A stretch of 64,000 nucleotides of DNA from the NCBI GenBank assembly GCA_036170915.1, contig JAVHQC010000004.1, positions 1-64,000 on the forward strand. The letters are read 5' to 3'. Origin of the DNA: Cyanobacteria bacterium auto_48_18. Its GTDB lineage: Bacteria; Cyanobacteriota; Vampirovibrionia; Obscuribacterales; Obscuribacteraceae. The notes under the pieces are model-generated. The model did no database searches. It worked only from the letters and a program-made list of their open reading frames with translations, and had not been told where the DNA came from. The translations under genes were made by a program, and so were the position numbers. Position 1 is the stretch's first letter, and each line of letters opens with the position of its first letter. Positions 4,777 to 47,475 of this stretch are shown here, in pieces.

Positions 4777-4798
4777 CTCGCCAAATTAGCTGGCCAAT

Positions 4799-5404: not shown

Positions 5405-5430
5405 TTGTTTTCCTCTGTTTATAGTAAGTA

Positions 5431-5877: not shown

Positions 5878-5896
5878 TTTTCTTTTTTCTCTCTAT

Positions 5897-6466
5897 TTAC
5901 GAATTGTCTTGTGCACTGCCGGTAGTGTCAACAACTTCTGACTGCAATCTTGCTTGCAGAGTCTTAATCACCGCCAGCCGCTTTTTCAATTCTTCCACCA
6001 AAATTTCAGCCGCAGCGCTGGCCTCGATAGTGGTCTTTATGCATAATGTTTCGAGCAGGGCCGCTTTGATGCCCAGCACAAAATTACAAGATTGAAGCAC
6101 GGCAGCCACCGGTTCTTCACGCTCTTGCCCCTTACTAAGGGCTAAACCGGCCTCCAGCGATGAAAGGGCGTCTTTCTGCACATGGTCCAGCAAACTGACG
6201 CCATAATCTTTCTGATTGTCTATTCCTTTGACCAGCTCGCAGAAGTTTAGCAACTCACGCTCAGTGCGCGTAGAAAGCCTCGAAACTCCCTGTCTGGCGG
6301 TTTCCATCCAGATAGCGCGAGTGACTTCAAGTTGGCTGGCTGCGGCAGCCAGCCGCTGCAAAGCGGTAATTTTGTCGAGCTCGCCGGCGCGCCACTGTTT
6401 GAAGGTGTTTTGCGCTAAAGCCAGGTTCGATTGGGTTTCTTCGCTAGGATCGTCGAAGGCATTCAT
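5897..6466 (-). CDS. Hypothetical helical protein
   Basis: 189-aa ORF co-oriented with cdd; GGAGAG upstream. Confidence 0.65.
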   Translation of the reverse strand: MNAFDDPSEETQSNLALAQNTFKQWRAGELDKITALQRLAAAASQLEVTRAIWMETARQGVSRLSTRTERELLNFCELVKGIDNQKDYGVSLLDHVQKDALSSLEAGLALSKGQEREEPVAAVLQSCNFVLGIKAALLETLCIKTTIEASAAAEILVEELKKRLAVIKTLQARLQSEVVDTTGSAQDNS

Positions 6467-6631
6467 GGAATTATTGTGGGCTCTCCGGCCAAATAGTATA
6501 CAGGGTAGATATAGAGCACAGCTCCACCTCCTTAGATCTTCTACCGTACGGAGGTGCTGCCCTATCAGCTTGTCGCGAAAGTTGAGATTAAACTCTAAAT
6601 TGTAGCGCTACAGTGCCTTTCCGAAATTGGA

Positions 6632-7540
6632 TTATAAAGTCTTCTTTTGCAGGCCGGAGCTATTTTTATCTTGTGGGGCAGGTGACGCGCTAGGGACATG
6701 AGGCTGCACTGCAGGTGGCTTGGCTGCGCCTTTACCATCGTCGAAATAGTTACGTATATATAGGTTAGTGCCTACAGGGCTGAGCTTTGGTGAGCCGATG
6801 GTCTTTTTTTCATCCAGTAAAGTTTGCAAATTGTCTGCACTCTTCTGAATTTCTTGGGCGTGACTGTTGCCCCTTTCGAGCGATGTGCGCTGGTTCTCCA
6901 GCTCCTTTTTCATTTGCTCGAGCATCTTTAGCGACTCTTTATTGCCTTTGCCTTTAGCAATGCGGTCCTCCAGCTCTTTTTGGGTTTTCGCCAGAGCCTC
7001 ACTTTGTATTCGGGCCATTTCCAGGGCCTCGCGTTCTCGCTGACTACGCACGCCGTTCTTTGCTTGCTCAACTTGAGCCTTAAATGTATTTCGGGCGCTT
7101 TCGATGGCTTTATCTTTAGGAGTGAGGGGCACAACAGGTGCTTTGGTTTCAGTTTTTGGCGGCTTAACAGCGGCTTCTGAATCGACACCAAGATAGCCTA
7201 AAGCTTGTTTTGAAAGCTTCCCTACTTCTTGATCTGGGGCGAGGGCAAAGGCAATGCGAAATTCTTGAATGGCCAAGTCTTTTTTGTTGACGTGAATATA
7301 TGTATTGGCTAGATAGTAGTGGAATTTTGGATTGCTAAATTCGGCCTGACGAGCGAGGCCAAAATTATTTTCAGCCGATTTGTAGTCTCCATTTTTAAAG
7401 TCGATCACGCCCTCGGTCATTTCTTTGCTTTCCGCCATAGCGGGTGGTGTCAGAAAGATGGTACCGGCCAGCAAGCAAAAGGCAGTGACCAGCCATTTAG
7501 TTGTCTTCAATGCATTAGTGCTGGTGAAATGGCTAATCAT
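6632..7540 (-). CDS. Exported TPR plus coiled-coil protein, last gene of the Tad-like pseudopilin operon
   Basis: Signal peptide ending AMA, TPR (FHYYLANTY...AIQEFRIA), coiled coil; 4-bp overlap with the upstream gene. Confidence 0.75.
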   Translation of the reverse strand: MISHFTSTNALKTTKWLVTAFCLLAGTIFLTPPAMAESKEMTEGVIDFKNGDYKSAENNFGLARQAEFSNPKFHYYLANTYIHVNKKDLAIQEFRIAFALAPDQEVGKLSKQALGYLGVDSEAAVKPPKTETKAPVVPLTPKDKAIESARNTFKAQVEQAKNGVRSQREREALEMARIQSEALAKTQKELEDRIAKGKGNKESLKMLEQMKKELENQRTSLERGNSHAQEIQKSADNLQTLLDEKKTIGSPKLSPVGTNLYIRNYFDDGKGAAKPPAVQPHVPSASPAPQDKNSSGLQKKTL

Positions 7541-15934: not shown

Positions 15935-16630
15935 CTAGCTCTGGCTAGCAGGTTTAGGCAATTCAAATTTATAGCCCACGCCATATACTGTTTGAATAAA
16001 CGATTCTTGATTTTCGCTGTCGATTTTCTTTCGCAGTCTTTTTACGCAAGTAGTGAGCGCGTTACTGGTGGCATCTGATTGCGATGACCAAACTCTGTCG
16101 AGCAGCGCTTCCTGGGTAAAAACCTGATTTGGGTGGCGCATGAGAAATTCCAGTAAGGCATATTCTGTCGGCAATAGCTTAATTTCGGCACCACCTTTGG
16201 TGACTTTATAAGTGCCGCGATCCACAAAAAGATCGCCAAAATTGAGCACTTCATCCACAAGAGTGCTGGGTCGCCTCAACAGTGCCCTTAGCCTTGCGCT
16301 CAATTCTTTCATGTGGAAAGGTTTTGTTAGATAGTCGTCAGCTCCGGCATCAAAACCTTCTTCTTTATCAACAATGGTGTGGCGGCCAGTGAGCATTATT
16401 ACTGGAGTATCTACGCCCAGTTTGCGCATTTCGTGCAGCACTTCGATACCGCTCATTTCTGGCAAGGTCCAGTCGAGAATGACCAGATCATATTTGTAAA
16501 AGCGCAATTTTTCCAAACCGTCTTTGCCGTCTGGAGCCATCTCTAACTGGTGATGTTCAAGCAAAAGCCAGTCTCGAATCATCCGAGACAAACCAGCGTC
16601 GTCTTCTACCAGCAGAATCTTTGCCATCAC
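15935..16630 (-). CDS. OmpR/PhoB-family response regulator
   Basis: LVEDD, LDWTLP, GADDYLTKPF; winged helix ending TVYGVGY. Confidence 0.95.
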   Translation of the reverse strand: MMAKILLVEDDAGLSRMIRDWLLLEHHQLEMAPDGKDGLEKLRFYKYDLVILDWTLPEMSGIEVLHEMRKLGVDTPVIMLTGRHTIVDKEEGFDAGADDYLTKPFHMKELSARLRALLRRPSTLVDEVLNFGDLFVDRGTYKVTKGGAEIKLLPTEYALLEFLMRHPNQVFTQEALLDRVWSSQSDATSNALTTCVKRLRKKIDSENQESFIQTVYGVGYKFELPKPASQS

Positions 16631-18468
16631 GCTCCCTTTCGCGGCAGTTTGAACCAGAATGTGCTGCCTTTGCTGTCAGCCTCAGGGCCGTCGTCTACAC
16701 CTATTGTGCCACCGTGTTCTTCAATTAATGCGCGGCAGATGGCAAGCCCTAAACCAGACCCGCCTTTGGCCGAACTGTCGCCGGCTTCTACCTGACGGAA
16801 ACGCTCAAAGATCGCTTCTCTTTGATTTTTAGGCACGCCCCTGCCCCGGTCGACGATGTCTACTTCAATTTCACTGCCGACTTTTAGCATAACGGCAATG
16901 CTGCCACCTTTTTCTGAAAATTTTATGGCATTGGCGAGTAAATTGACCACTACTTGAGTCAGCCGCTCAGGGTCGCCGTCAACATCAGGCTTCAGTGAGT
17001 CCTGGCTGGTAGCACCGGAATATGTAATTGCCACTCCTTGTTGTTTAGCAAAACCAGTGACCGATTCAATGGATCTGATAATTACAGAATTTAGGTCAAC
17101 TGTTTCCATCTCAAAAGTGAGCATGCCTGATTCAAGTTTTTCAATATCGAGAATATCGTTCACCAGGTGCACCACTCTGTCGATATTCATTTCAGCCAAC
17201 TCTAGACTTTCAGTGCCAGATTGTGAAAGCGCACCGTAAGCGTTGGCCCGCAAAAGATCTAGAAAGCCCTGTACCGAAGTCAGTGGTGTGCGCAAATCAT
17301 GGGAAATCATAGCTACGAAATCTTGCTTTAGATTTTCGATTTTTTTGCGTTCGGTAACATCATGGGCGACGCAAAAAAGCGTCTTCTCCTGGGCTGACCA
17401 CTGGGCGGTCCACACCATATCAACGAGGGTGCCGTTCTTATGTTTGATTTTGTTTTCAAAAGTGCCTTCGCCTTGCGCAGAAATAATCGCTGCAACGGTT
17501 TCTAAAGTCTCTTGAATATCAGGGCCATAAAGTAATTGACTGAATCTAAGGCCGATTAATTCATCGGCATTGTAACCCCAGACCTTTAGAGAGGCCGTGT
17601 TCATGCGGGCTATGCGGCTGTCACCATCAATGGAGCAAATCACTTCTACTGCATTTTCAACCACTGCCCGTTCTTTGCGCAATGCTTCAGCTAGAGCACC
17701 AGCCATGGTGCGAAAGGTGCGATCAAGAAGGGCAATTTCGTCATTGTCGCCTTTGATGGGTGGATTTAACGGCTGGTCGGCCGCCAACTTTTTTGTATTG
17801 TCTACCAGCGCCGTTAGCCTTCTTGTGGTGCCGCGATTGTAGTAAGCAACCAGTAATAATGCCAATAGAATATTGAAGACCACAGCAGCGAATATCAGAG
17901 CTTTGACACCATTGCGATATTGTACCTGTGCCTCTTTTTTCGCCAGCTGAACTGCCTGTTGCTCTTCCACCAGCTGGTCTACAAGTTTGAAAATGCGATT
18001 GAGTGTGCGCTGCACATTCACCCATTTTTTCATCAGTTCAATTTTGTCGCCCGTGACCATGGGCTCATGCGTGCTGTTTAAGTCAACGATGGCGACCTGG
18101 TTGAGATTTTCTAGTTTGGCAAAAATTTCTCTTTCATGATCGTTGTTGCGCACCAGATATTTAAGCTGTTTTGCTTCGCTGTTGAAGACATCGATTAAAT
18201 GGCGATAGCGGCTATGCTGACTTTCTGATTCGGTCAAATAGGTGAGAATACTTGAAATCCCTGCGTCCAAAAGTAAACGCAAAAGCCCGTTGGCGTGCGT
18301 GGCGACGTCGCGGGCGTGAGCTTCGCGTGCTCGCTCTTGCTCGGCTTGCTCTAAGAGCGTGACTAGCCCAGCCACAAACAGCAGTTCAAACACGAGCGGC
18401 ACTGAGACAAGAATAATTGCCTTGCGCGAAAGAGTTAAATTGAAACGACTAGACATACACTTACTCAA
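16627..18468 (-). CDS. Membrane sensor histidine kinase (TM-sensor-TM-HAMP-PAS-HisKA-HATPase), catalytically intact
   Basis: SHDLRTPL, NLLANAIKF, DRGRG, GSGLGL; overlaps its response regulator by 4 bp. Confidence 0.95.
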   Translation of the reverse strand: MSKCMSSRFNLTLSRKAIILVSVPLVFELLFVAGLVTLLEQAEQERAREAHARDVATHANGLLRLLLDAGISSILTYLTESESQHSRYRHLIDVFNSEAKQLKYLVRNNDHEREIFAKLENLNQVAIVDLNSTHEPMVTGDKIELMKKWVNVQRTLNRIFKLVDQLVEEQQAVQLAKKEAQVQYRNGVKALIFAAVVFNILLALLLVAYYNRGTTRRLTALVDNTKKLAADQPLNPPIKGDNDEIALLDRTFRTMAGALAEALRKERAVVENAVEVICSIDGDSRIARMNTASLKVWGYNADELIGLRFSQLLYGPDIQETLETVAAIISAQGEGTFENKIKHKNGTLVDMVWTAQWSAQEKTLFCVAHDVTERKKIENLKQDFVAMISHDLRTPLTSVQGFLDLLRANAYGALSQSGTESLELAEMNIDRVVHLVNDILDIEKLESGMLTFEMETVDLNSVIIRSIESVTGFAKQQGVAITYSGATSQDSLKPDVDGDPERLTQVVVNLLANAIKFSEKGGSIAVMLKVGSEIEVDIVDRGRGVPKNQREAIFERFRQVEAGDSSAKGGSGLGLAICRALIEEHGGTIGVDDGPEADSKGSTFWFKLPRKGA

Positions 18469-35671: not shown

Positions 35672-36629
35672 GTGCGGCCAGCTTTCTATTTTTCGATTTT
35701 GCTATTGCTCGTGTTGTCTGTTACACGTCCGGCACTCGCTGCCGAAAGTAATGCAGAAGAGCACCTCTCCCTGGACGATGCGCGCCAGTATATGCTCACT
35801 CTGATAAACCGAGATCGCGCTGCTCACAATTTAGCACCGGTGGTTCTAGATCCGATCGCCTCGCAAGCTGGTCAAGTGCATACCGAAGATATGGTGCTCA
35901 ACAATCACTCCGGGCATTATGATGTGAACGGCAAAAAACCATGGCAACGTTATACCGAGGCTGGCGGTTCTGGTTATGTATCAGAGAATGCCTTTTGGTC
36001 GTGGTTTACCGAAAATGACGATGGCAGGCCTGAGAGTGGGAATACAGAAAAAGTCTTTGCACTACCAGCGGTGCAAAGCTTTAATAAAGGCGCGTTTGAA
36101 GAAGCTGAATCTTCTTATTATAACGAGGTGCCTCCTAATGATGGCCACCGACTCAATATTCTTGACCCGGGACATACTGGCGTTGGCATTGCCTTTACCA
36201 TGGGCAGCGATGGGAGCAGATTTCGCTTTGCCAATACTCAAGAATTTACCGACAATTATGGCCGCTATACCAATTTGCCAGCAGATTTAAATCGGCCATT
36301 TTATGTAGGGGGAGTGCTTGCGGACGGCTGGGCCGTGCAGTGTATTTCCATTTTGTGGGAGCGCGCACCTGAGCCATTAATGCCTGAAGCGATTGAAAAA
36401 AATGGAGTCATACAAGCACCCCGGCAAATCGCTCGGCGATTACTTCGCTGTGGCGTGGGCTAAACAGCCGATTGAGGTCAGGACGATCAATGGCAGCCAG
36501 CAACAATTTCGTGTACTGATTACGCCCCAGAAAAACTGGAAGCCGGGTCTCTACTATGTCGACGTTCGCGCCCAGCGTAATGGTCAAAAACCAGTCTTAA
36601 TTTCACGCAGGACTATAAGTTGTAAATAG
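35672..36629 (+). pseudogene. CAP/SCP domain exported protein interrupted by a frameshift in an A7 run
   Basis: LINRDR, HTEDM, SENA, GHRLNIL, GVGIA; deleting one A at 36396-36402 joins the 36393-36629 frame (IEKMESYKHP...). Confidence 0.7.
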
Positions 36630-36662
36630 CGCGCCAGGCGTCCTTTGGGTCGTAAATGGAAC

Positions 36663-36720
36663 TCAGATTGATATCAATCTAGTTATGAAGTTGGAAAATC
36701 AGATTGATATCAATCTAGTT
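36663..36720. repeat. Tandem pair of the 16-bp palindrome AGATTGATATCAATCT (locus 1)
   Basis: Copies at 36665-36680 and 36701-36716, each within TCAGATTGATATCAATCTAGTT. Confidence 0.92.
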
Positions 36721-36778
36721 TTTATTCGAACCCCTGCCGCCTCACTGGGTCAGCCTCTAAGCCCTTCCAGCCCAACGA

Positions 36779-36807
36779 AAAGTCCCGAATGTCAAATTCG
36801 AGACTTT
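36779..36807. terminator. Bidirectional intrinsic terminator-like hairpin
   Basis: AAAGTCCCGAAT / ATTCGAGACTTT between convergent genes. Confidence 0.55.
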
Positions 36808-36853
36808 ATATAGTCTAAAAACACACTTTTCGTTCGGTTGCAAGGAATCAGAT

Positions 36854-37513
36854 TTAAGACGTAGCCTCTATGGCATCTCGGGTGAGATTGGCCCTTTGTT
36901 CTACTGTTGCCGCTTCGTCCGTTTTATCTTGCCCGGCTAAAGCAGCTGCCAGTTTGTGTCGAGCGGAAGCAACCTCGGCATGATCGGCTCCCAGCAGATT
37001 TTCAAGGCCCGAAATCAATATTCTGTAGTGGTTTTCAGCTTCTTCAAAAGACCCCTGTAAGAGTAATTCGTCGGCTGTTTCCAGTACGCTCTTTACGGCT
37101 TTAAGTGTCCTCTCGGCGCGGTCAACAATATATGGATTCTCATCGTTTTTGAGCGATTCTAAAATTTCAAGCGGCGTGTTGGCATTGCCAGCCAGTTCAA
37201 ATCTCACATCTGGATGCTCGTCGTGAGCCAGCGCATCTAGAACTTCACCTGGTGTATTTGGATTTTTTGAGACCGCTGAACGAACTTCATGGGCGTTGTG
37301 GGTTGCTAGTTTTTGCAGTGTGCTTACAGGTACTTGGGCGTTTTCTGCCACGCGGGCAGTTACATCTGTATTGCCCCTGTCGGCCAACTTTTCCAGCACT
37401 GCGGGTTTAGCGTCAGGATTAGAGGCTAATCTCTGCTTAGCTTGCGTATGGGCACCTGGTTTGCTGCACTCTTCTGCATTCTGATGACCGCAAGCATTTT
37501 CTTCATCTGGCAT
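36854..37513 (-). CDS. LRV/HEAT-like repeat protein with a C-terminal TPR
   Basis: Repeats A.NP.TP..VL..LA.D...VR; GADHAEVASARHKLA. Confidence 0.8.
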   Translation of the reverse strand: MPDEENACGHQNAEECSKPGAHTQAKQRLASNPDAKPAVLEKLADRGNTDVTARVAENAQVPVSTLQKLATHNAHEVRSAVSKNPNTPGEVLDALAHDEHPDVRFELAGNANTPLEILESLKNDENPYIVDRAERTLKAVKSVLETADELLLQGSFEEAENHYRILISGLENLLGADHAEVASARHKLAAALAGQDKTDEAATVEQRANLTRDAIEATS

Positions 37514-37538
37514 AACTTTTCTCCCGTATTTCTTGCAT

Positions 37539-37564
37539 CGACGGGAGGGCAGATTAAAGGTTCC
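37539..37564 (-). promoter_or_regulatory. ECF-sigma-type promoter GGAAC-N17-GTCG
   Basis: Minus strand, about 25 bp before the ATG at 37513. Confidence 0.6.
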
Positions 37565-37581
37565 AACTCTACTGTAAACAA

Positions 37582-38352
37582 TTATTCATCGACTATTTCA
37601 GCGTCTACCACTGTCAGGTCAGTTTTCTTTTCTTTGTCACTAACAATCATAGGGACGTTGCCATCCACGACTATTTTGGGCTGCTTATCGCCGATTAACT
37701 TTGTATCGGTCATTTTGGCTTTGAGGGCTGCCAGTTCGTCGTCCAGATCAAGACCTTTGGCGGCATCGTCGAAATGCTTTTCTGTTGTCGTGCCGCTCAT
37801 TTCTTTCAATGCTTCGTTTTTAAATTCCTTCTCGCGAATTTTGTCTTCCCATTTGTCCATGCTCGAGCCACCACCAGCAGGGCCGCCATTAATTAGTTCA
37901 TTGGCTTTAGCCACACCGTCGGCTGCTTTTGTTCTAGCCAACATAGATTGTTTTTTGATTTTAAAATCTCGATATTCTTCTTCGAGCTCATTCATTCTTT
38001 GTTTGAGGGCGGTGGTGGCTTTTTTCTGCTCACTAATCTGTACTGTGAGCGTGTCCACATTCTCTTTAAAATCTTTTTTCTTAGCAATGCACTGGCGTGC
38101 CAGGTCGTCATTATTCTGCTCCACGGCCATAACCGCTCGCTTTTCCCACATTGCTAGTTCGTCGCTGTTTTTTTGCAGCTGACCTTCCATCATTTTTTCA
38201 TTGGTCAGAGCAGCGGTCACGGCTTCTTTAACTTTCTTAAGGCCGCTTTCCAACTCCATCTGTGCTTGCTCGGCCAGAATGGTTGGCGTCTCCATTTTGC
38301 TCACACCCTGGTTGAGCATGCCTTTGATTACGTTTTTCAATCGGTCAAGCAT
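37582..38352 (-). CDS. pspa: PspA/IM30 family protein
   Basis: MLDRLKNVIKG, ETP.ILAEQ, WEKRAVMAV..NNDDLAR, DDELAALKAKM. Confidence 0.9.
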   Translation of the reverse strand: MLDRLKNVIKGMLNQGVSKMETPTILAEQAQMELESGLKKVKEAVTAALTNEKMMEGQLQKNSDELAMWEKRAVMAVEQNNDDLARQCIAKKKDFKENVDTLTVQISEQKKATTALKQRMNELEEEYRDFKIKKQSMLARTKAADGVAKANELINGGPAGGGSSMDKWEDKIREKEFKNEALKEMSGTTTEKHFDDAAKGLDLDDELAALKAKMTDTKLIGDKQPKIVVDGNVPMIVSDKEKKTDLTVVDAEIVDE

Positions 38353-38434
38353 TTTTAATTCCTACCTTAGCGGCGCCTGTTAGCTGCCCACCCATAATAC
38401 CCCCGGAGCTCCAGTTTGTAACCGACCGGCCCAG

Positions 38435-40252
38435 TTAATCAAGCAGTCGGTCAGCGCTATCCGTGCCTGTTGGTAAGAGAAAATTGAAGGAGGCACCGCC
38501 CTCGGCGCCGTTATCAACCCAGATTTTGCCCCCGGCGCGCTCGACTATGGTTTTACACACGCTGAGCCCCAGGCCTGTAGATGGTGTGGATGTTTTTGAA
38601 TTATCAAGCTGCTTAAACGGTGCGAAAATTTCTTGGCGAGATTGAGCCGGAATGCCACTACCCTGATCCAGAACTGAAAAGATTACTTGATTGCCTTGAG
38701 GCAAAAAACTGTTTACTTTGTAGGGTCGCGAAGCTACTTCAATACGGCTGCCCTCCGGAGTAAATTTAATAGCGTTAGAGATCAAATTGATTAAGACCCG
38801 CTCTAATTCTGACTCTGTGCCGCGCACCATTGACCAATCGACCTTCGAGACTATTTGTACGCCTTTGGCCTGTGCCAGGCTGCGCACGGCCTCGATAGAG
38901 CGACTGATAACTGTTTTATTTGAGCACATCCCTTGCGAGACGGCAATTTCAAGTTTGGTCGGGTCGGTGGATTGATCAAGTTGATTGAGAAGATTGCTCA
39001 ATCGCTCAACATTAGAGGCAATGACGGCCAGTTGTTTATTGCTCCAGGTATCTTGAGCCGGTTTGGTTGCCGCAATTTGTTTTGCCTGGCTGATTAAGGA
39101 GGATATAGTTTTGAGCGGTGAACCCAGCTCTAGAGTAAGGTAGCGACTGATTTGATCCCGTAAGCGCTCAACATTAGTTGAGTCGGTAATGTCGTGTGCC
39201 ACGCAAAAATATGACTGGGATTGTTCATTCCAGTTTACTGTCCACTGAGTGTGGTCAGGCACACTCAGGAGGTTTTGCGTATCGAGTTGAAATACTTTTC
39301 TTGCACCGGTCTCACGAGCCATTTCAACTTGGCTCTCCAGACGCAAACGCACAGTGCCACTGAAAAAACCAAATAAATTTTGATCGATTAAGTCAGGCAT
39401 GCCCTGGGCAAGCCAGTTTGATACTGTGATGTTCCCTTTAACAATTTTTCCGCTGGGTGAAACTTCAAGCAAAAAGGCTGGTGATAGTTCATACAAATTA
39501 TGCTGACGCGAGCTGGCGGTGGCCAGCGTTGAGGCAATATGCAAAAGAGCGCTGTCGATTTCTAGAAGCTCTTGTGGCGCTAACTGTAGCGGAACCAATT
39601 TTCTTTGGGCTGCCATTGCCCTAGCGTTTTGAAGAATGTGATAAATGGGTTTGTAAGCCAGCTGCCCCACAAGCCAGGCCAAACAAATACCACCAATAGA
39701 AGAAATTGCCAGGCCGGTGATCAAAAACTGTTTTACAGCAGCCAGAATGATTACGGTATCACCAGAGGTGCCCCGGGCGCGCTCAATAACTTCATTGGCG
39801 ACCATATTAATGTCGGCAAAGATTTGAACGGTAGCCTTTTGTACTTCTGCATTTGCGTCTTTCTGTGAGTCAGAAAAAGATAGTTGTTTCATATCTTCTT
39901 CCAGTTTTTTTTGATGGGCCAGAATACTCTGCAGTCTTTTTCTGGCCTCTGGTGAAAGAGATTGATATTGAAAAACCTTGCGAGTAGTTCTGTCTATTGT
40001 AGAAGTAGTGGTGGCCTCGGCAAACAGGCTGGTGCTATTTTTCTCGAGCCTCACGGCCAGAAGTTTTTCCAGCATTGCTGTCACTAACTTTTGCAAATCA
40101 ATAGTGTATCCACGAGCGGCAATTTCAGCTTTTACTGCTGATTCGGCGTTCCTTACTTGCCAGTAAAGTACTGTAGAAAAAATTATCTGGCAAACTAATG
40201 GAATGCACAGTACGAAAATACCAAGCCATTTAAGGGAGATTGAATATTTCAT
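38435..40252 (-). CDS. Membrane histidine-kinase-like protein lacking the phospho-acceptor His, with an intact HATPase
   Basis: H-box reads TLELGSPL; N box NLISNAIKF, G1 DQGSG, F box IFAPF and G2 TGLGL all present. Confidence 0.88.
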   Translation of the reverse strand: MKYSISLKWLGIFVLCIPLVCQIIFSTVLYWQVRNAESAVKAEIAARGYTIDLQKLVTAMLEKLLAVRLEKNSTSLFAEATTTSTIDRTTRKVFQYQSLSPEARKRLQSILAHQKKLEEDMKQLSFSDSQKDANAEVQKATVQIFADINMVANEVIERARGTSGDTVIILAAVKQFLITGLAISSIGGICLAWLVGQLAYKPIYHILQNARAMAAQRKLVPLQLAPQELLEIDSALLHIASTLATASSRQHNLYELSPAFLLEVSPSGKIVKGNITVSNWLAQGMPDLIDQNLFGFFSGTVRLRLESQVEMARETGARKVFQLDTQNLLSVPDHTQWTVNWNEQSQSYFCVAHDITDSTNVERLRDQISRYLTLELGSPLKTISSLISQAKQIAATKPAQDTWSNKQLAVIASNVERLSNLLNQLDQSTDPTKLEIAVSQGMCSNKTVISRSIEAVRSLAQAKGVQIVSKVDWSMVRGTESELERVLINLISNAIKFTPEGSRIEVASRPYKVNSFLPQGNQVIFSVLDQGSGIPAQSRQEIFAPFKQLDNSKTSTPSTGLGLSVCKTIVERAGGKIWVDNGAEGGASFNFLLPTGTDSADRLLD

Positions 40253-42120
40253 TCCATTTCCTTCGATTGTGGCAATGAAACTGTGGCTTGCTGCACGAAG
40301 CCCTTGTCAAGAATCAGTGAAATACTGCCGCCGTGACTGCGAATAATGTTGTCAACCAGGTAGAAAGACATGGGTAAATTCAACTCCATGATTGAGTCGC
40401 TGTCTATGGTTATGGCTGCTGGTGAATTGGAAAAGTCACCGTCATTGGTGGCTTCTGGCAGGTAGCCGACAAAAGTGGTTTTGCCAAACGCTTCGCTTAT
40501 GATCAGATTAAACTGCTGGGCGCGCACCACTCTTTCGATCAAAATCTCAAAAATCGAAATTAGTGAACGTGTCAGTAATTCTTTGTCACCGCTGATAGTG
40601 CTCTTGCGTTCACTAATGATGTCGGTGCTCACAACCGGATAAAGCGTCTCCAGCCGTTCTGCCACTGCTGCCGCCAGCTCTAGAGCTGGTATTTTACTTT
40701 CAGTAATGCCGATATTGCCCGATTCGATTTTTTTCCAGTCGAGCACATCGGTCACCAGTTTAGTCAGCTTTTGCGATAATTGGCTCGCGTCTTTTAATAG
40801 AGATGCTTCGCGCGGAGTATTTTTTTCGGCGTTCTTCATCGCCAGTAACTCTATACTTGTAGACATCGACATTAATGGTGTGCGCATGTCGTGACTTAGA
40901 GTTGAACAAATATTTTCGCGCAAACTTTGCATCTGGTGCTTCTGGGTAATGTCATGACAGACGCAGAGAAATTCTTTTTCGGCTGCTACCCAGTGAATAG
41001 TCCAGAGGAAAAAAGTCTCGATGCCGCTTACATCTAAATGCTGGCATTCTACTGATCGCGAGCCACCTTCAAGTTTGGCCCGATTAAGTGTCTTGAGCAT
41101 AGGTGCTACAAAGGGCTCAGCGATTAAATTTTCAACGCTGGTTCCAATTAGACTGTCTGCCGGATAACCCCAGAATACTTCACATGATTTATTCACTCTG
41201 GTAATCAAACCGTTTGCATTTAATGAGCAGAGCACATCACCAGAATATTGAACGATAGCTAATTCTGATTGGTGCAAATTACTAATTTCAATAAAAGCCG
41301 TCTGAATTTCTTTAGCGAGCTGAACTATTTCATTGTTCGTGTGCCTGCTGCGCTCCAGATAAGCAGCGGTTCTTCGAGCATGAGCGTCTAGCTCATCATC
41401 ATCATCATCACCAGCATAATCATAATCGTCTTCATTAGAGGACGATGGAATTTCTTCCGGGCGCCCAGTTTCGATTTGTTTCTTCAGTCGGTTTAGTGGG
41501 GCAATGATTTGTCCATTGAAAATACTGATGGATAGCCAGGTCACCGCAAGGCTGAGAGCATTGCTGAGCAGAAGAAAAGGCAAGAACAACAATTCCTGGC
41601 GGTGCAAGTTGGCCAGAGAATTATGTTGCAACCAGTCTTCAGCCTCTTCGCGAGCACCAAATAATGTTCTTGAAGCCAGTCCGATTGAGAAGAAGCCCAT
41701 TCTCATCTGTTTTAGTTCTTTTGGACCAATGGGTTTCTTTAGTAGTAACCTTGTCTTTTCCGCTACGGCTACGAAGTTGTCGCAGAGTTCAATGGTCTCA
41801 TCGTTGTACAGCGCCAAGCGCGGATTCTCGCGCACCGCGGCAGGAAAGTCCGCTCGCATGGTTTTAAGAGCGGCAATTACCATGGTGGCAAAGCGTTGTC
41901 CTTCTTCCGAATTTGCATTGGAATCGGTGCTTAGAAGCGTAAAAAGCATGCACAATTTTTCTTCAAAAGCGAGTACCATGCGCACTCTTTCAATAGAGTG
42001 TTTGTGAACGATATACTCGAACTGCAATTGGTTGAGGGCGTATGTGGCAATGACAATGCTAATCAGGCCGCTGCAAACGGGCAGCAGCATGAGCAGTATA
42101 CATTTCAAGCGGATGGACAT
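40249..42120 (-). CDS. Membrane histidine-kinase-like protein with an intact H-box and a degenerate HATPase
   Basis: SHDMRTPL present; N box replaced by RSLISIFE, no DxGxG or GxGL; TM-HAMP-PAS upstream. Confidence 0.85.
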   Translation of the reverse strand: MSIRLKCILLMLLPVCSGLISIVIATYALNQLQFEYIVHKHSIERVRMVLAFEEKLCMLFTLLSTDSNANSEEGQRFATMVIAALKTMRADFPAAVRENPRLALYNDETIELCDNFVAVAEKTRLLLKKPIGPKELKQMRMGFFSIGLASRTLFGAREEAEDWLQHNSLANLHRQELLFLPFLLLSNALSLAVTWLSISIFNGQIIAPLNRLKKQIETGRPEEIPSSSNEDDYDYAGDDDDDELDAHARRTAAYLERSRHTNNEIVQLAKEIQTAFIEISNLHQSELAIVQYSGDVLCSLNANGLITRVNKSCEVFWGYPADSLIGTSVENLIAEPFVAPMLKTLNRAKLEGGSRSVECQHLDVSGIETFFLWTIHWVAAEKEFLCVCHDITQKHQMQSLRENICSTLSHDMRTPLMSMSTSIELLAMKNAEKNTPREASLLKDASQLSQKLTKLVTDVLDWKKIESGNIGITESKIPALELAAAVAERLETLYPVVSTDIISERKSTISGDKELLTRSLISIFEILIERVVRAQQFNLIISEAFGKTTFVGYLPEATNDGDFSNSPAAITIDSDSIMELNLPMSFYLVDNIIRSHGGSISLILDKGFVQQATVSLPQSKEME

Positions 42121-42135
42121 ATTGTACTTAGGTAC

Positions 42136-44391
42136 TTAGTGTTGTTGACCGGGCAAGGGCAGGAGCTGTGAGCCACTTCCGGTTACCCAGCTGGTGTACA
42201 GGGTATGTTTGCTACCGGCCAACTGCTCGAGCCAGATTGGGGCCGTCCACATTCTATCTAAATTGGCAGTGATCGGATCTTTTCTGTGCACTTCAACAAA
42301 ATATGCCGAGTTGTGACCAACTTTGCCGGTAATCGGATCAAAGGCCACTGTTTTAGACGTTTGCAATAAATCGGCACCAGTCAAGACTCTTTCTTGTAGT
42401 ACCGTGGCCAATTTGCCGTCACCGATTTTGGTATCACCCCAGAGTTTGACTGTGTAGGCTGCAGCTGGGTCTACCACGCCGTCTATTTTCATTTTTAGAG
42501 CCAGGCTTGGCACCACACTTTGGTCAACAATGCTGCCCATGACAAACTTGTCGTTGGCGATCATCACTCCACTGAGATTTTTAGAGCTGGTTGTGGCAAT
42601 TGTGCGACGTTCACGCATGGCTTCAAGAATGCTCGGTTTGTCTAAAGCTTTGGCATAAAATCCTGTTGCGCCTGGGTTTCCAACGGGCTCGCCAAAATGG
42701 AAATCGCGTCCAAAAGTAGGGCTGGCGTGGACTTTTTTGTCAATGTAGCCGGCAAAGCTGGTGGGATCCAGGTCGCCGGGAGCGACTTTGTCCACCGGAT
42801 TTTCTTTCATGGCGCCGCCCTTAATCAACTCAATTTGTCTGACGTACTTATCGGCAAATCGCTCCAGCCATTCCTTTTGACTTTTGAATGATTTCTGACC
42901 GTAGTCGCGACCTCTCGCCCAGGCCGCAGTGGTGGGATTTTCATCAGCCAGGTAGCGGGGGTGATTGAGTTGAATGATTGGTGTGTTACCGGTCTTGTCC
43001 ACAATTTTGTCTAGATGAGTGACCATGGCCTTATAATCACCGTCGTTATATTTAATAACGTCTGGCACCGTCACCACCGGTTCTGGTTCTTTACCCATAG
43101 TTCTCATGATGAAGCTGCGCAAGCCGGTTCTAGGTTCTCGAATGGCCTCAAAAAAAGTAGGCACTTCAAAAAGATTGATGTGGTTGACTCCACCCAGGTG
43201 ATCGGCTTCGTTAGATTCGTGGCGTGCTTTCTTTAGATCAAATAATCCGGCTACTGTTTTTGCTTCGCCCACACTCTCTGCGTTTACCATGCCGTGAGTG
43301 TGCCCGTGTTCCGCACCGGTTTTACCGATGGTACCCATTTCGGTGCCAACAAGAGAAACATGCTTGCCATTAACAGTGGTGGCAGCAGCATCGGCAAAAG
43401 TCTGAGAATATGAGATGGGGTTTTCAGTATTGATGGGGGTACCGGCTTGATCTTTGACTCTGGCGTCACCAGCGTGTATACCACCTCTGGCCGCGGCATG
43501 ATTGTGGTCGGTAATGGTGGTGACGTGTTGGCCTTGAGCGGCAGCTTTGGCATATAAGTCTTTGGGCAGCCCCATACCGTCTGAATAACGTGAGTGGCCG
43601 TGCAGCGATCCGAAATACATTTGCATGCCATTGCTTTCGCCGGCCGTGCCACCATCTAAGGTGCGCTCGATATTTTTGTTGACGAAACTATATTGCTCTA
43701 AGCGTCTGGTTAAGGCGCCGGGTTTGAAGATACCTTTTTCTAGAGGTGTGAGGATTGCCCCCGCTTCAGCCTCTTTGGCATTGGCAAGCACGTTAATTTT
43801 GCCAACATTTGCTGTGGGCGTTTCGCCAAAGCTATTTTTTAACCTTGCCAAAGCTACCAGAGCTTCATTTTCGCCTTTTTGAATAAGTTTCTGGCTGATT
43901 TGGCCAAAGCTACCGATGGCAGATTCATGCCTGGCCAGTTTGGAGCCGAGTTCTGTACCGCCGACGCCGCCCACCAGGCTGATGCCTAAATCAAAGCCAC
44001 CGACAACGGCTTCGCCAGCCAGTTTCTTTGAAACATCGTCCATGCTGACGCCTGATTTAATCTGGTTGCGGGCTTCTTCAACACGTCCGTAACCGCTTAC
44101 AATTACTGGTATCGTGAAGGCGGCACCAATCACCATGGCTGCTGGCCCTCTGGCCGGTAGCACGTAGCCTAGAGCTGCACCCATCGCGGCTGAAGACACT
44201 AAAGTCGTACCCACATGCAGTAGCGCTTCTGCTGGTTTTTCATAAAGCTCTTTGGCAAAGGCGACACTGGCATCAGGAATATGCTGAGCCGTCTCCTGTA
44301 GCAGTTCCACAGTCGACACATCGGTGCCGTTGCTGTTATTTGAATTTATTGCGCTGGACGCACTTTTGGAGACAAGGGGCATCTTCACCAC
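42136..44391 (-). CDS. PHP-superfamily (CehA/McbA-like) metallohydrolase with an N-terminal Gly/Ala-rich hydrophobic region
   Basis: GSLHGHSRYSDG, ITDHNH, GTEMG, HINL, LNHP, GRDFH, WTAPIW. Confidence 0.75.
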   Translation of the reverse strand: MVKMPLVSKSASSAINSNNSNGTDVSTVELLQETAQHIPDASVAFAKELYEKPAEALLHVGTTLVSSAAMGAALGYVLPARGPAAMVIGAAFTIPVIVSGYGRVEEARNQIKSGVSMDDVSKKLAGEAVVGGFDLGISLVGGVGGTELGSKLARHESAIGSFGQISQKLIQKGENEALVALARLKNSFGETPTANVGKINVLANAKEAEAGAILTPLEKGIFKPGALTRRLEQYSFVNKNIERTLDGGTAGESNGMQMYFGSLHGHSRYSDGMGLPKDLYAKAAAQGQHVTTITDHNHAAARGGIHAGDARVKDQAGTPINTENPISYSQTFADAAATTVNGKHVSLVGTEMGTIGKTGAEHGHTHGMVNAESVGEAKTVAGLFDLKKARHESNEADHLGGVNHINLFEVPTFFEAIREPRTGLRSFIMRTMGKEPEPVVTVPDVIKYNDGDYKAMVTHLDKIVDKTGNTPIIQLNHPRYLADENPTTAAWARGRDYGQKSFKSQKEWLERFADKYVRQIELIKGGAMKENPVDKVAPGDLDPTSFAGYIDKKVHASPTFGRDFHFGEPVGNPGATGFYAKALDKPSILEAMRERRTIATTSSKNLSGVMIANDKFVMGSIVDQSVVPSLALKMKIDGVVDPAAAYTVKLWGDTKIGDGKLATVLQERVLTGADLLQTSKTVAFDPITGKVGHNSAYFVEVHRKDPITANLDRMWTAPIWLEQLAGSKHTLYTSWVTGSGSQLLPLPGQQH

Positions 44392-44497
44392 CCGTTAGTG
44401 GCACTACTCTAAGGCCGAGGGTAGCGCGGGCCATTGGGGAAAATACTGCTTCATGGGCAAATTACGAAAGAATTTAATGCTTGTCCGGAGAAACTCT

Positions 44498-44899
44498 TTA
44501 CGAGCGCTGACTGCGATTGCGAATGGAAGAAAGAATAGCAATGGCAATTCTGCTGCCGTCAGCCTTATCTTTAATCAGATAGTTGTCTGCTCCGCTCTGT
44601 AACGCTTCGGCAAGGAGATCGCGATCCTCCATTCCCGTAACGATGATAATAGGCGTGTTATTGGCCTGAGCTCTCATGTCCAGATAGGTTGAGAGGCCAT
44701 TCGAATCAGGTAAATTCAAATCAAGAATAATGCACTCGTGTGTTTCTTTGCCATACTTTGTAATTGCTTCATCTAAGGTTTGCACATGGTCTAAGGTGTG
44801 AGGAAATTCCACCACTTCCAAAAGCATTTGAGTCATGAGCATAGCGTCTGAAGGACTATCTTCCACCAGCAAAACAGAAGTTGGCTTGATCTCAGTCAT
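44498..44899 (-). CDS. Single-domain response regulator
   Basis: LLVEDS, LDLNLPD, GADNYLIK; ATG at 44899 overlaps the end of the upstream gene. Confidence 0.9.
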   Translation of the reverse strand: MTEIKPTSVLLVEDSPSDAMLMTQMLLEVVEFPHTLDHVQTLDEAITKYGKETHECIILDLNLPDSNGLSTYLDMRAQANNTPIIIVTGMEDRDLLAEALQSGADNYLIKDKADGSRIAIAILSSIRNRSQRS

Positions 44900-45341
44900 T
44901 CCGACCGCCGTTAGGTGGAACAGTGGCGACAACAAAATAAAAGTTTTGAATATCTTTGACTATACTGATGAACTTTTCAAAGTCTACCGGTTTCGTAATG
45001 TAGGCGCTGGCTTGCAGGTTGTACGATTCGAGCACGTCTCTTTCACTTTCTGATGTGGTCAAAATAATTACAGGAATTCGCTTGAGCAGAGGGTCTTGTT
45101 TGATTTCTGCCAATATCGAGTGACCATTTTTTACAGGCAAATTTAAATCGAGCAAGATCAAGTCAGGCACCTGAGCATCGCTGTATTTGCCTTTCCTTTG
45201 TAAATACTCCATGGCATCGCCGCCATTGTCGATAATCGTCAGGGTGTTCATCACGCGGCTTTGTTTGAAGGCTTCCACTGCCAGTTCGGCGTCTGATGGA
45301 CTATCCTCCACCATCAAAATCTGAATATCTTTGACATTCAT
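44892..45341 (-). CDS. Rcp1-type single-domain response regulator
   Basis: PDLILLDLNLP, IPVIILTTS, YITKPVDF. Confidence 0.92.
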   Translation of the reverse strand: MNVKDIQILMVEDSPSDAELAVEAFKQSRVMNTLTIIDNGGDAMEYLQRKGKYSDAQVPDLILLDLNLPVKNGHSILAEIKQDPLLKRIPVIILTTSESERDVLESYNLQASAYITKPVDFEKFISIVKDIQNFYFVVATVPPNGGRND

Positions 45342-46795
45342 TACGCTACTATCTCCTCTACTTTTTGTACTTTGATGGCGCCGGTGTTAATGGGCAATTT
45401 AATCATAAATTTCGAACCACTACCAACGGTTGAAATAGCAGTAATGGTGCCGCGATGCCTCTCAACAATGCGGCGACAGAGAGCCAAACCAATGCCTGTG
45501 CCTTCATATTGACTGCGTGAATGCAGGCGCTGGAAGAGCACAAATATTTTGTCTTGATGTTGCATGTCAAAACCGATGCCGTTGTCTTCAACGCATATTT
45601 GCCAGTTGGGAGTTATTTGCAAGGCGCTAATTTCTATTTTAGGAGTTCTATCGCCACGGTATTTGATTGCGTTATTAATCAAATTGACAAAAAGCAGGCG
45701 CAACTGGCTGGCATCACCTTGCAAGGTAGGCAAAGACTGATCGACTTTAATTTCTGCTGCAGTTTCAGCAATAAGAAGGCTCAAATCTTTGAGAGCGTCT
45801 TTAACTACCACGTTCAAGTCAATTGCTTCCATCTGACCACCGCGCGATTCTACTCGAGCATACTGCAGCAAACCGTTAATCAGCGCACGCATGCGTTCAG
45901 CACCCGACACAGTCTGTTCAATCCATCCGTCTGCTTGTTCGCTCAGTTGACCCTTGTAGGTTTTGGCCAGTAAGGTTGTAAAACCTTGCACTGCCCGTAG
46001 TGGCTCTTGTAAATCGTGAGAGGCGACATATGCAAACTGTTGCAGATCTTGATTTGAGCGGGCTAAATATTCGCTAGCTTCACGCAAAGACTGTTCAGTG
46101 GCCAGGCGCAATTTTATTTCGGCTTCAAGTGCTTCGGTGCGTTTTCTTTGATCTTCAGCAAAAGCATTGTTCAGTTTGTAGGTATAAATTAGTGATGCTG
46201 CTTCCAATAAGGTGAAGACGGCGATCAATGCGCCTACTGAAACTTGTAAGGAGGCCACCGCAGCTTCGCGTTTCTTCAGCAGCTGATTTTGCCACATGTC
46301 TGATTCAGCAATTAAATTGCGAATTCTATCCATGATCAGTTTGCCTTTATAGGTTTTGATTATTGCGATGGCCTCATCAGGTGACCTTGAATAAGACTTT
46401 ATTATGGAATCGATAAAATCAAGTTTGTTTTTGACTTCTCCTCTGATTTTCTGCATGCGCGCAGTCTCAACCTCGTCATCGGCAGTCAAATTTTGCAGCC
46501 TATCGGCAATTTCGCCTGCTCGATGGCGTGATTTGTTGAGAGGCTCGAGAAAAGTAGCATCACCAGTGGCCATGTATCCTCGTTGACCAGTTTCGCAGTC
46601 GAGGCAGACCAATAGTAGTTCTTTGCAACCGCTGATTACTTGATGACTGTGAGAAACCCATTGTTGAGCTACGCGCAATTGAGCGATTGCCCATCCGGTG
46701 GCGGCCAGGGCGAGCAAAAACAGACACCCGGCAATAGCCAGGGCGTAAGCCGTTTTCTTGTTGACACTCTGCGACAAATCCGCCTCACGTAGCAC
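45341..46795 (-). CDS. CHASE3 sensor histidine kinase (bacteriophytochrome-like kinase class)
   Basis: WVSHSHQV, ETGQRGY (CHASE3); ASHDLQEPLR, NLINNAIKY, DNGIG, GTGIGL. Confidence 0.93.
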   Translation of the reverse strand: MLREADLSQSVNKKTAYALAIAGCLFLLALAATGWAIAQLRVAQQWVSHSHQVISGCKELLLVCLDCETGQRGYMATGDATFLEPLNKSRHRAGEIADRLQNLTADDEVETARMQKIRGEVKNKLDFIDSIIKSYSRSPDEAIAIIKTYKGKLIMDRIRNLIAESDMWQNQLLKKREAAVASLQVSVGALIAVFTLLEAASLIYTYKLNNAFAEDQRKRTEALEAEIKLRLATEQSLREASEYLARSNQDLQQFAYVASHDLQEPLRAVQGFTTLLAKTYKGQLSEQADGWIEQTVSGAERMRALINGLLQYARVESRGGQMEAIDLNVVVKDALKDLSLLIAETAAEIKVDQSLPTLQGDASQLRLLFVNLINNAIKYRGDRTPKIEISALQITPNWQICVEDNGIGFDMQHQDKIFVLFQRLHSRSQYEGTGIGLALCRRIVERHRGTITAISTVGSGSKFMIKLPINTGAIKVQKVEEIVA

Positions 46796-46835
46796 ACGGC
46801 TTATTATTGCAGCTTAGCTGGACAGTCACCTTAGT

Positions 46836-46872
46836 GAAAAGGAATTCGCGGTCTAAACACGAATTCCCTTTC
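46836..46872 (-). terminator. Intrinsic terminator after the fasciclin gene
   Basis: AAAGGAATTCG / CGAATTCCCTTT arms followed by a T-run on the minus strand. Confidence 0.55.
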
Positions 46873-46917
46873 TTCTGCAGCTCAAAAATCATGGAGCTGC
46901 AAAGTTTTGTTTGTAAT

Positions 46918-47475
46918 TTACTCAGCCAGTCTCGGCATAATGGGCTGGTCTATGATGTGAATCACACCGTTAGAACACTGAATATCAGCCTCTTTAATAC
47001 GAGCCTTGTCTACATAAAGTTCTTTTTTATTGTCTTCAGTCTTGCTTGAAACATTGATTTTGTGTTTGAGGTCCATTGGTTGCAATGTTCTTTGCATAGC
47101 GATGGCGTCAGAATTGATTCTTTGGTCTTTGAGAACGTGATAGCTCAGTACTTCCGACACACGTTTTGGATTGTTGAAAAGTGACGTCTGGTCTTCACCT
47201 GGCATTTTGCCCCAGGCTTTGTCGTCTGGTGCAAAGAATGTGAATGGTCCTCGTCCTTTCAATTGATTGTCCATGTTGTAGGCAATGGAAAGGCCGTCGA
47301 GAGTTTTATGGAAAGAACCACGTCGTTTCAGCTCATTGACGATATCGAGCTTATCAGAGGTGGATCCTTTACCAATGACAGCTGGGTCTTTGGCAATACT
47401 TGGGGATTGAGCCAGGGCTGTTAAGGCTATTGCTGACAGAGCTGTGCATAGCCATTTGTTACTAGATGATTGCAT
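46918..47475 (-). CDS. Fasciclin (FAS1) domain exported protein
   Basis: GPFTFFAPDDKAW, VLSYHV, ADIQCSNGVIHIID; ATG at 47475 follows GGAGA. Confidence 0.92.
   Translation of the reverse strand: MQSSSNKWLCTALSAIALTALAQSPSIAKDPAVIGKGSTSDKLDIVNELKRRGSFHKTLDGLSIAYNMDNQLKGRGPFTFFAPDDKAWGKMPGEDQTSLFNNPKRVSEVLSYHVLKDQRINSDAIAMQRTLQPMDLKHKINVSSKTEDNKKELYVDKARIKEADIQCSNGVIHIIDQPIMPRLAE

Follow-up and report, generated by a model that had tools for sequence, protein, structure and literature searches.

Sensor histidine kinases are textbook homodimers, and both the symmetry of the dimer and the direction of phosphorylation within it (cis or trans) have been probed by means of engineered mixtures of mutants. 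In EnvZ/Taz1, NtrB and CheA, point mutants of the His box and of the ATP box reportedly complement each other in mixed dimers, in which autophosphorylation in trans is said to be regained. Such mixtures are engineered from one homodimeric protein, whereas the two genes described here, called A and B, form a natural and fixed pair that would follow the same logic with two different sensors. They lie on the minus strand of a window of 64,000 nucleotides (positions 1 to 64,000 of contig JAVHQC010000004.1, assembly GCA_036170915.1) from the genome of Cyanobacteria bacterium auto_48_18, a member of the Obscuribacteraceae. Gene A (40249..42120) encodes a protein of 623 amino acids (aa) with the phosphorylatable histidine and a degenerate catalytic domain, and gene B (38435..40252) a protein of 605 aa with an intact catalytic domain and no histidine at the acceptor position. 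The pair is a real, conserved and lineage-specific two-gene unit, and its products are probably the phospho-acceptor subunit (A) and the ATPase subunit (B) of one transmembrane sensor histidine kinase.

A natural division of acceptor and ATPase between two polypeptides is described for CheA3/CheA4 of Rhodobacter sphaeroides, where neither protein autophosphorylates alone, the mixture does, and the His-bearing partner is a phosphatase (as presented in parts of PMC3591291 and PMC7656254). Separated DHp and ATPase polypeptides of EnvZ also stay active, according to a study cited in PMC3591291. The split CheA Hik36/Hik43 of Synechocystis resembles A-B in the same respect as CheA3/CheA4. CheA3 and CheA4 are soluble proteins of the CheA class (HPt/P1-type), each lacking the domains of the other; unlike split CheA, A and B are full-length transmembrane proteins of the HisKA class that have kept all their domains and degenerated in opposite motifs, and they have no sequence relationship to CheA3/CheA4 beyond the kinase superfamily. 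A preliminary description of the locus had set it beside CheA3/CheA4, a comparison that is too narrow, as it missed the HK1/HK2/TcrA system and MaeK. HK1/HK2/TcrA (Rv0600c-Rv0602c) of Mycobacterium tuberculosis consists of a HisKA-class kinase spread over two adjacent genes and a cognate OmpR-type regulator. Work by Shrivastava et al. in 2007 is said to have found that one of HK1 and HK2 binds ATP and the other carries the histidine, and the system is reportedly one kinase physically split into two short proteins, with no pseudo-domains and no second sensor. It is listed as a three-protein system in the part of PMC9321153 that treats it.

The closest analogue of subunit A, by description, is MaeK of the Lactobacillales, a membrane kinase that keeps the histidine and the E/DxxT/N motif and whose degenerate, nucleotide-blind catalytic domain is still needed (as set out in sections of PMC5457438); no ATPase-bearing, His-less partner is described there, and its sensor belongs to a different family (citrate/DcuS type). 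Archaeal "HisKA, no HATPase" proteins have been described as well (PMC5847659, in part). In another group of systems, represented by DivL (with CckA) and RetS (with GacS), a defective kinase-fold protein acts by contact with another membrane kinase; RetS and GacS form heteromers at the level of the DHp domain according to the relevant passages of PMC12189002, and a His-less hybrid kinase of Caulobacter is suggested to heterodimerise in those of PMC11481889. CckA and GacS are complete kinases being modulated, whereas A and B are both defective, and in opposite ways, so that neither can be a complete enzyme: the constant partner of each protein is oppositely defective, and no nearby intact kinase is conserved. 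The full-text literature (a body that leaves most subscription journals outside its coverage) yielded split CheA, HK1/HK2/TcrA, MaeK, the archaeal HisKA-only proteins and the pseudokinases DivL, RetS, PsmA and a ChrS variant, with no case of two full-length membrane kinases that show reciprocal losses in nature and no account of signalling in Obscuribacter.

Both open reading frames (ORFs) are full length and uninterrupted, and the stop of A overlaps the start of B in an ATGA (40249..40252, minus strand), an arrangement of translational coupling, with a Shine-Dalgarno-like AAGGAA 6 nt ahead of the ATG of B; these frames and their overlap had been reported beforehand exactly as found. Protein A consists of a transmembrane segment, a sensor, a second transmembrane segment, a HAMP-like linker, a PAS domain, a DHp domain with His410 and a degenerate kinase-fold domain. 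Protein B follows the same plan, with a PAS-like region, a His-less DHp and an intact catalytic domain. A hydropathy scan placed the hydrophobic segments of A at residues 7-25 and 177-195, with an extracytoplasmic sensor between them (about residues 26-176; 41593..42045, minus strand), and in A and B alike the two segments are separated by about 140-150 residues. The preliminary description had given both proteins the layout of the intact kinase at 16627-18468 (minus strand), which was matched by both HisKA and HATPase_c in Pfam. This layout holds for the transmembrane segments and for the PAS domain of A; Pfam found HAMP in neither protein (in the intact kinase it reached only E 0.016, weak and below the cut-off), and it found no PAS in the B of this window, although a paralogue of B (B2, see below) gave PAS_8 at E 1.6e-5. 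An Asp-rich acidic insert of about 25 residues (residues about 224-250; 41371-41451, minus strand) lies in the linker after the second membrane segment of A and is missing from B and from the intact paralogue; the linker that houses it is the least constrained part of A (dN/dS, the ratio of nonsynonymous to synonymous substitution rates, 0.25).

The cytoplasmic halves differ in a strictly complementary way. In A, Pfam matched PAS and HisKA (E 8.8e-11, residues 405-468; 40717..40908, minus strand) and did not match HATPase_c at E <= 0.1; in B, it matched HATPase_c (E 4.8e-26, residues 479-595; 38468..38818, minus strand) and not HisKA, so the profile check that had been proposed for the pair returned one HisKA-only and one HATPase_c-only protein. 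Alignment showed that A keeps SHDMRTPL, with the codon of His410 at 40891-40893 (minus strand), and that its pseudo-catalytic domain (pseudo-CA; residues 471-623; 40252..40710, minus strand), recognised by alignment, AlphaFold2 and Foldseek, lacks the N-box Asn and the G1 DxGxG and has LPMS in place of the G2 glycines; the losses agree with those first noted. B has LTLELGSPL in a YLTLELGSPL context, where Leu374 (codon 39131-39133, minus strand) occupies the His position, followed by NAIKF (N), DQGSGIP (G1), FAPF (F) and STGLGLS (G2). The boxes previously ascribed to B are thus present and the leucine is where it had been placed, except that the first glycine of G2 is a serine. The HDMRT of A also fits the phosphatase motif HE/DxxN/T as defined in the pertinent section of PMC3591291. 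A and B can be aligned where the PAS region ends (51 aa, 33%, E 5e-9), and their cytoplasmic profiles are homologous over 225 columns (hhalign probability 96.8%, E 2.5e-10), with LSHDMRTPL of A paired with LTLELGSPL of B, which lies in the pseudo-DHp of B (residues 356-435; 38948..39187, minus strand). Among the features of a class I HisKA kinase, the phosphorylatable histidine thus occurs only in A and the HATPase_c boxes only in B; judged by these motifs, neither protein alone is a complete class I kinase, and the two together hold both features.

Forty relatives were searched with A and with B, including the genus of this genome (15 genomes counting this one, G000). Full-length and stop-free A orthologues were found in 12 of the 14 congeners (58-62% identity), and B orthologues (57-60% identity) lie directly downstream on the same strand wherever the contig continues. 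The adjacent pair, A then B, is present in 12 of the 15 genus genomes (pair 1); in the others, the genes stand on two contig ends (G008), A lies at a contig end (G001), or pair 1 was not matched (G006, 77% complete). Outside the genus, the best matches were ordinary kinases, over the PAS-DHp part only. A second, paralogous pair in the same order (A2-B2, pair 2) occurs in 8 of the 15 genomes, including G000 on contig C5, with 36-40% (A) and 35-40% (B) identity to pair 1 over the matched parts. A2 and B2 are found together in the same eight genomes, adjacent on one strand in all of them, and both went unmatched in the other seven. The 4-bp overlap is found at 9 of 11 pair-1 loci (one of the others has a 1-bp overlap and one an unclear start) and at all eight pair-2 loci.

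Pair 2 shows the same reciprocal losses as pair 1. Full-length sequences of 12 A1, 11 B1, 7 A2 and 8 B2 proteins were extracted; from G008, A2 (truncated by the contig) and B1 (truncated) were left out, from G009 the A1, which is broken, and the B1, which is truncated, and from G001 the A1. All 38 carry the reciprocal pattern, which is far beyond chance across orthologues and paralogues. All 19 A-type proteins have H-D-[ML]-R-T-P-L, lack Asn, G1 and G2, and share LPMSFYLV (then Glu or Asp) invariantly at the place of G2. In the 19 B-type proteins, the N, G1, F and G2 boxes are retained throughout and none has a histidine at the acceptor position, where B1 proteins carry Leu, Ile or Val and B2 proteins Thr or Ser. 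The surrounding YL[TN]xELGxPL is conserved, and the His-less H-box is near-invariant from B1 to B2, with Y, L, E, L, G, P and L in common. A-B accordingly has what marks a split kinase, histidine and ATPase on separate co-occurring polypeptides, and what marks a bifunctional one, a phosphatase motif on the His-bearing partner, in 19 of 19 A-type proteins.

Much larger collections did not extend the distribution beyond this clade. In 5.8 billion protein clusters, searched by word index with the DHp and pseudo-CA of A, there were 33 proteins with HisKA and without HATPase_c (called from a precomputed Pfam column), and the next two matches were weak ordinary kinases. When 1.84 billion representatives were compared with a profile of the pseudo-CA, three sequences came out at E < 1e-30 (A1, A2 and a fragment) and thus no detectable relative outside its own clade at that threshold; 15 more came at E >= 9.8e-6, 13 of them with a normal HATPase_c. 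The search of the protein clusters with B gave 28 HATPase_c-only clusters, followed by a drop in E from 2e-57 to 5e-35 at the transition to complete kinases. When one genome from each of 185,579 species was scanned for the motifs, there were 20 loci, 13 of the pair-1 type and 7 of the pair-2 type, all in metagenome-assembled genomes (MAGs) of Obscuribacter or Obscuribacterales type. The partner predicted at first, an adjacent ATPase-only gene beside each His-only gene in related genomes, was found at 18 of 18 assessable loci, with the B motifs after the A motifs on the same strand; at the other two of the 20, the contig ends just after A. No A-type or B-type gene was seen alone, or outside the clade, in these searches. 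Two pair-bearing contigs (L044, L057) belong to a MAG titled Flavobacterium psychrophilum, probably a mislabelled bin. The locus was found in one DNA sequencing run, a groundwater metagenome that is possibly the source sample, and no RNA run holding it was listed in the sequencing-run search.

The conservation is accompanied by purifying selection, which bears on the simplest alternative, namely that A and B arose from an ordinary kinase by duplication, are now decaying and do not function together. By the Nei-Gojobori method (pairs with dS between 0.05 and 1.5), whole-gene dN/dS was 0.089-0.171 for A1, 0.054-0.116 for B1, 0.091-0.178 for A2 and 0.092-0.176 for B2. By domain, pooled over four genome pairs that are related, so that the figures are descriptive, A gave 0.131 for the sensor (residues 1-205), 0.254 for the linker, 0.059 for PAS, 0.022 for DHp and 0.108 for the pseudo-CA, and B gave 0.102, 0.164, 0.059, 0.028 (pseudo-DHp) and 0.086 (CA). 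The DHp hairpins are the most constrained parts of both proteins, and by these ratios the degenerate domains are as strongly constrained as the working ones. Decay could be read from one congener (G009), in which the copies of both genes are disrupted, but it is contradicted by dN/dS of 0.05-0.18 for whole genes and of 0.03-0.11 for the degenerate domains, by intact orthologues (12 of A1 and 11 of B1) that are about 60% identical to the copies of the window, by the replacement of the lost motifs with new invariant ones (LPMSFYLV and YLTxELGxPL) common to paralogues only 36-40% identical, and by the confident folding of the pseudo-domain in a structural model. The decay reading was rejected on the selection analysis and is considered extremely improbable; neither relaxed selection nor independent occurrence, the two contrary outcomes that had been named in advance, was seen.

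The pseudo-domain of A was modelled by AlphaFold2 together with its DHp (19-row alignment; mean predicted local distance difference test score, pLDDT, 79.4), as a helical hairpin leading into an alpha/beta sandwich, and the pseudo-CA reached pLDDT 81-94 per 10-residue block, with 60 in the last block. Foldseek against the PDB matched this fragment to histidine-kinase cytoplasmic cores (6lgq_C, template modelling score 0.68), including RetS (6dk8_A, score 0.62, rmsd 4.3) and DivL (4q20). A is thus confidently modelled as keeping the kinase ATPase fold despite the missing boxes. The corresponding fragment of B (mean pLDDT 73) was modelled as a hairpin and a catalytic domain whose lid has low confidence, and it aligned to HK853 nearly end to end (fragment residues 3-244, E 1e-18). 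A prediction of the complex between the DHp and pseudo-CA of A and the pseudo-DHp and CA of B scored 0.23 and 0.24, the mark being 0.32; these scores speak neither for nor against binding.

Regarding the origin of the pair, a tree was built by a short IQ-TREE search from 39 rows: A1, A2, B1 and B2 from five genomes each, 13 intact paralogues of about 600 aa from G000 and six outside relatives. A1 and A2 form one clade and B1 and B2 another (Shimodaira-Hasegawa approximate likelihood ratio test, SH-aLRT, 100 each), which indicates that each loss arose once, before the duplication of the pair, and the simplest reading of the tree is that an A-B unit was duplicated en bloc into pairs 1 and 2. The stems of the clades are long (2.17 changes per site for A and 1.73 for B) and both are nested among intact kinases that share their architecture. 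They do not come out as exclusive sisters, and the deeper placement is unsure, IQ-TREE having warned that long branches meet. Between the pairs, the sensor regions can still be recognised as related (A1 and A2 share 23-25% identity there and B1 and B2 about 22%; E 1e-6 to 1e-14), but their divergence is much greater than that of the cytoplasmic domains. Between A and B, the sensors appear unrelated, as BLASTP gave no match and hhalign a probability of 0.5%; the pair thus has the two different extracytoplasmic sensors of the preliminary description, such as a gate requiring both inputs would need.

It is proposed that B binds ATP through its intact catalytic domain and is not phosphorylatable because of Leu374 at the His position, whereas A, having lost canonical ATP binding, would carry the sole phosphorylatable histidine (His410) together with the phosphatase-type motif HDxxT. 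The catalytic domain of B would phosphorylate His410 of A in trans, and A would pass the phosphoryl group to a response regulator, which it probably also dephosphorylates. The favoured geometry is an A:B heterodimer in which the real hairpin of A and the His-less hairpin of B would form the four-helix DHp bundle; it is favoured by the translational coupling, by the hairpins being the most constrained parts and by the near-invariance of the B H-box across paralogues. In such a heterodimer, an asymmetry that is no more than transient in ordinary homodimeric kinases would be hard-wired, and a single output would be served by two unrelated extracytoplasmic sensors, an arrangement that, with both sensors constrained, would allow coincidence detection. 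In its full form, an obligate heterodimeric transmembrane histidine kinase that is hard-wired as asymmetric and needs both inputs, having come from duplication and reciprocal degeneration and been reduplicated with new sensor specificities, the proposal is possible, though we would not go so far as to call it probable.

The same division of labour could be exercised in another geometry, in which A:A and B:B homodimers stand in the membrane and B phosphorylates the histidine of A between dimers, resembling the action of CheA4 on CheA3 or of the isolated EnvZ ATPase on isolated DHp domains. Both hairpins are complete and constrained (dN/dS 0.022 and 0.028) and equally suited to homodimerisation, and histidine kinases are said to be generally selective homodimerisers. 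Separated EnvZ domains, moreover, act in trans (cited in PMC3591291). Nevertheless, a tethered ATPase domain reaching another dimer would be unusual for HisKA-type kinases, the production of A and B in a 1:1 ratio that the translational coupling suggests fits a heterodimer at least as well, and the near-invariance of the H-box between B1 and B2 is hard to explain if this segment only dimerises. This inter-dimer arrangement seems rather unlikely.

The genes around pair 1 are also conserved. Downstream of B, at 82 bp, lies pspA/IM30 (256 aa; 37582..38352, minus strand; Pfam PspA_IM30 E 4.1e-26), followed by a gene for an LRV/TPR-repeat protein of 219 aa (the two genes together 36854-38352, minus strand), and these two genes follow B in all pair-1 loci reaching that far, as does, beyond them, a convergent gene for a protein of about 420 aa. 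Upstream of A, at 15 bp, is a gene for a PHP-domain protein of 751 aa with a hydrophobic N-terminal part (42136..44391, minus strand; Pfam PHP E 6.6e-6), a homologue of which (748-768 aa) precedes A in all pair-1 loci reaching that far. The PspA and LRV/TPR neighbours suggest a membrane-stress module, and a possible role of the pair in envelope or membrane stress is suggested solely by the conserved pspA neighbour; a PHP phosphoesterase fixed beside the kinase pair may act in the same pathway. The pspA neighbour is also of interest for the evolution of PspA/Vipp1, as the lineage is a non-photosynthetic relative of cyanobacteria. Farther upstream, a CHASE3 kinase and two single-domain receivers are arranged end to end (44498-46795, minus strand; the receiver ORFs overlap by 44 bp as listed). 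A scan of 36400-47200 for promoter and terminator consensus sequences gave 16 promoter-like sites against 12.9 +/- 3.4 in shuffled sequence and 14 terminator-like sites against 12.5 +/- 3.1; as these counts equal those of the shuffled sequence, the scan draws no operon boundaries.

The genome of G000 holds at least 65 kinase-like ORFs of at least 300 aa, and the congeners gave at least 31-33 matches each, with a large expansion of kinases of about 600 aa with the transmembrane-sensor-transmembrane-PAS-DHp-CA architecture. In a regular-expression check, 27 of the 65 were flagged for some missing motif; most of these proved to be misses of the expression, such as the CHASE3 kinase, which is complete by Pfam, and only the two A-type genes keep the histidine yet lack N, G1 and G2 together.

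The position of the pair relative to response regulators differs between the two paralogous loci. The absence of an immediately adjacent regulator, pointed out for this locus together with pspA directly downstream of B, holds for pair 1 and not for pair 2, which adjoins a divergent OmpR-type regulator (REC and Trans_reg_C) in 7 of the 7 loci reaching that far. In G000 this is locus L013 (contig C5, 84700-93700), with A2, B2 and the regulator among ORFs 3036-4799, 4796-6604 and 6699-7376 and an intact kinase just downstream of pair 2 (ORF 1153-2937). An intact kinase was seen at this one locus; in the other six pair-2 loci that extend downstream there are ORFs of 232-307 aa or none of at least 200 aa listed, and Pfam matched neither of two of these ORFs (both at L014). 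Pair 2 looks like a three-gene two-component system in which A2-B2 would take the place of the "kinase", and the adjoining regulator strengthens the reading of the pair as a kinase. For pair 1, an orphan OmpR-type regulator elsewhere in the genome (L040, contig C22, 122900-126600; ORF 1845-2519, equal to 124744-125418, minus strand) is a weak candidate: it is the best non-self phmmer match of the pair 2 regulator in G000 (E 8.8e-74), has no kinase beside it at its locus, and is 96-99% identical in 13 of the 15 genus genomes, far more conserved than the kinases.

These surroundings bear on another alternative, in which A would be a phosphatase or phosphotransfer hub fed by other, intact kinases, as proposed for HisKA-only proteins and MaeK, while B would be an ATP-binding pseudokinase acting as an allosteric regulator of A or of another partner, in the manner of DivL or RetS. 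Regulatory relatives without the histidine or the ATPase are documented (DivL and RetS in part of PMC12189002, MaeK in part of PMC5457438 and the archaeal "HisKA, no HATPase" proteins in part of PMC5847659), and the kinase-like ORFs counted above would offer possible donors, one of them being the CHASE3 kinase with its two receivers, which lies just upstream of the PHP gene in 3 of the 7 genomes checked (G000, G002 and G004). In the other four, however, this module is missing and its place is taken by a gene whose product measures about 1,900 aa or more, and in most genomes no intact kinase adjoins pair 2 and its regulator. Additionally, the losses of A and B are exactly reciprocal, arose once each and were duplicated together in types never seen apart in these searches, and the known partners of pseudokinases are fully competent, whereas here the sole constant partner is itself defective. 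A hub with a separate pseudokinase appears unlikely on this evidence.

Several observations weigh against a two-subunit kinase. A bundle of the cis type would leave an A:B heterodimer inactive, and the direction of phosphorylation is the weakest link of the proposal; HK853, the closest solved relative of B by sequence, is one that we take to be a cis kinase. The first glycine of the G2 box is a serine in 19 of 19 B sequences, so that the ATPase activity of B is assumed. In G009, the closest congener (L031, contig C133, 1-6200, on a contig of 7.5 kb), A has to be read in three different frames, which cover residues 1-76, 126-417 and 418-623; about 49 residues are absent, and B is cut short at about 430 residues. 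Either the locus is genuinely decaying or the short contig was poorly assembled; a nearly identical intact pair is present in the protein collection (P0002, 89%, and P0053, 94% identity). The genomes are related and the counts are not independent, and co-occurrence overstates functional dependence because adjacent genes are inherited and lost together anyway. Pair 1 has no immediately adjacent response regulator, and the orphan regulator of contig C22 is not a reciprocal best match and is also present in G006, where pair 1 was not found. We infer that A and B associate, that phosphorylation runs from B to A in trans and that pair 1 would act on a regulator.

The finding concerns uncultured environmental bacteria, and the evidence is of the comparative sequence kind. 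The proteins are currently labelled as hypothetical, "ATP-binding protein" or "sensor histidine kinase", labels which hide that neither can be a kinase alone. If the proposal is true, the pair would provide a ready-made system of fixed asymmetry, in which one subunit only gives and the other only receives, that could be used to study the direction of phosphorylation, half-of-sites behaviour, the specificity of heterodimers and the integration of two inputs. It would also be a bacterial counterpart of the kinase/pseudokinase receptor pairs of eukaryotes, and a clean example of how duplication followed by reciprocal degeneration leads to mutual dependence.

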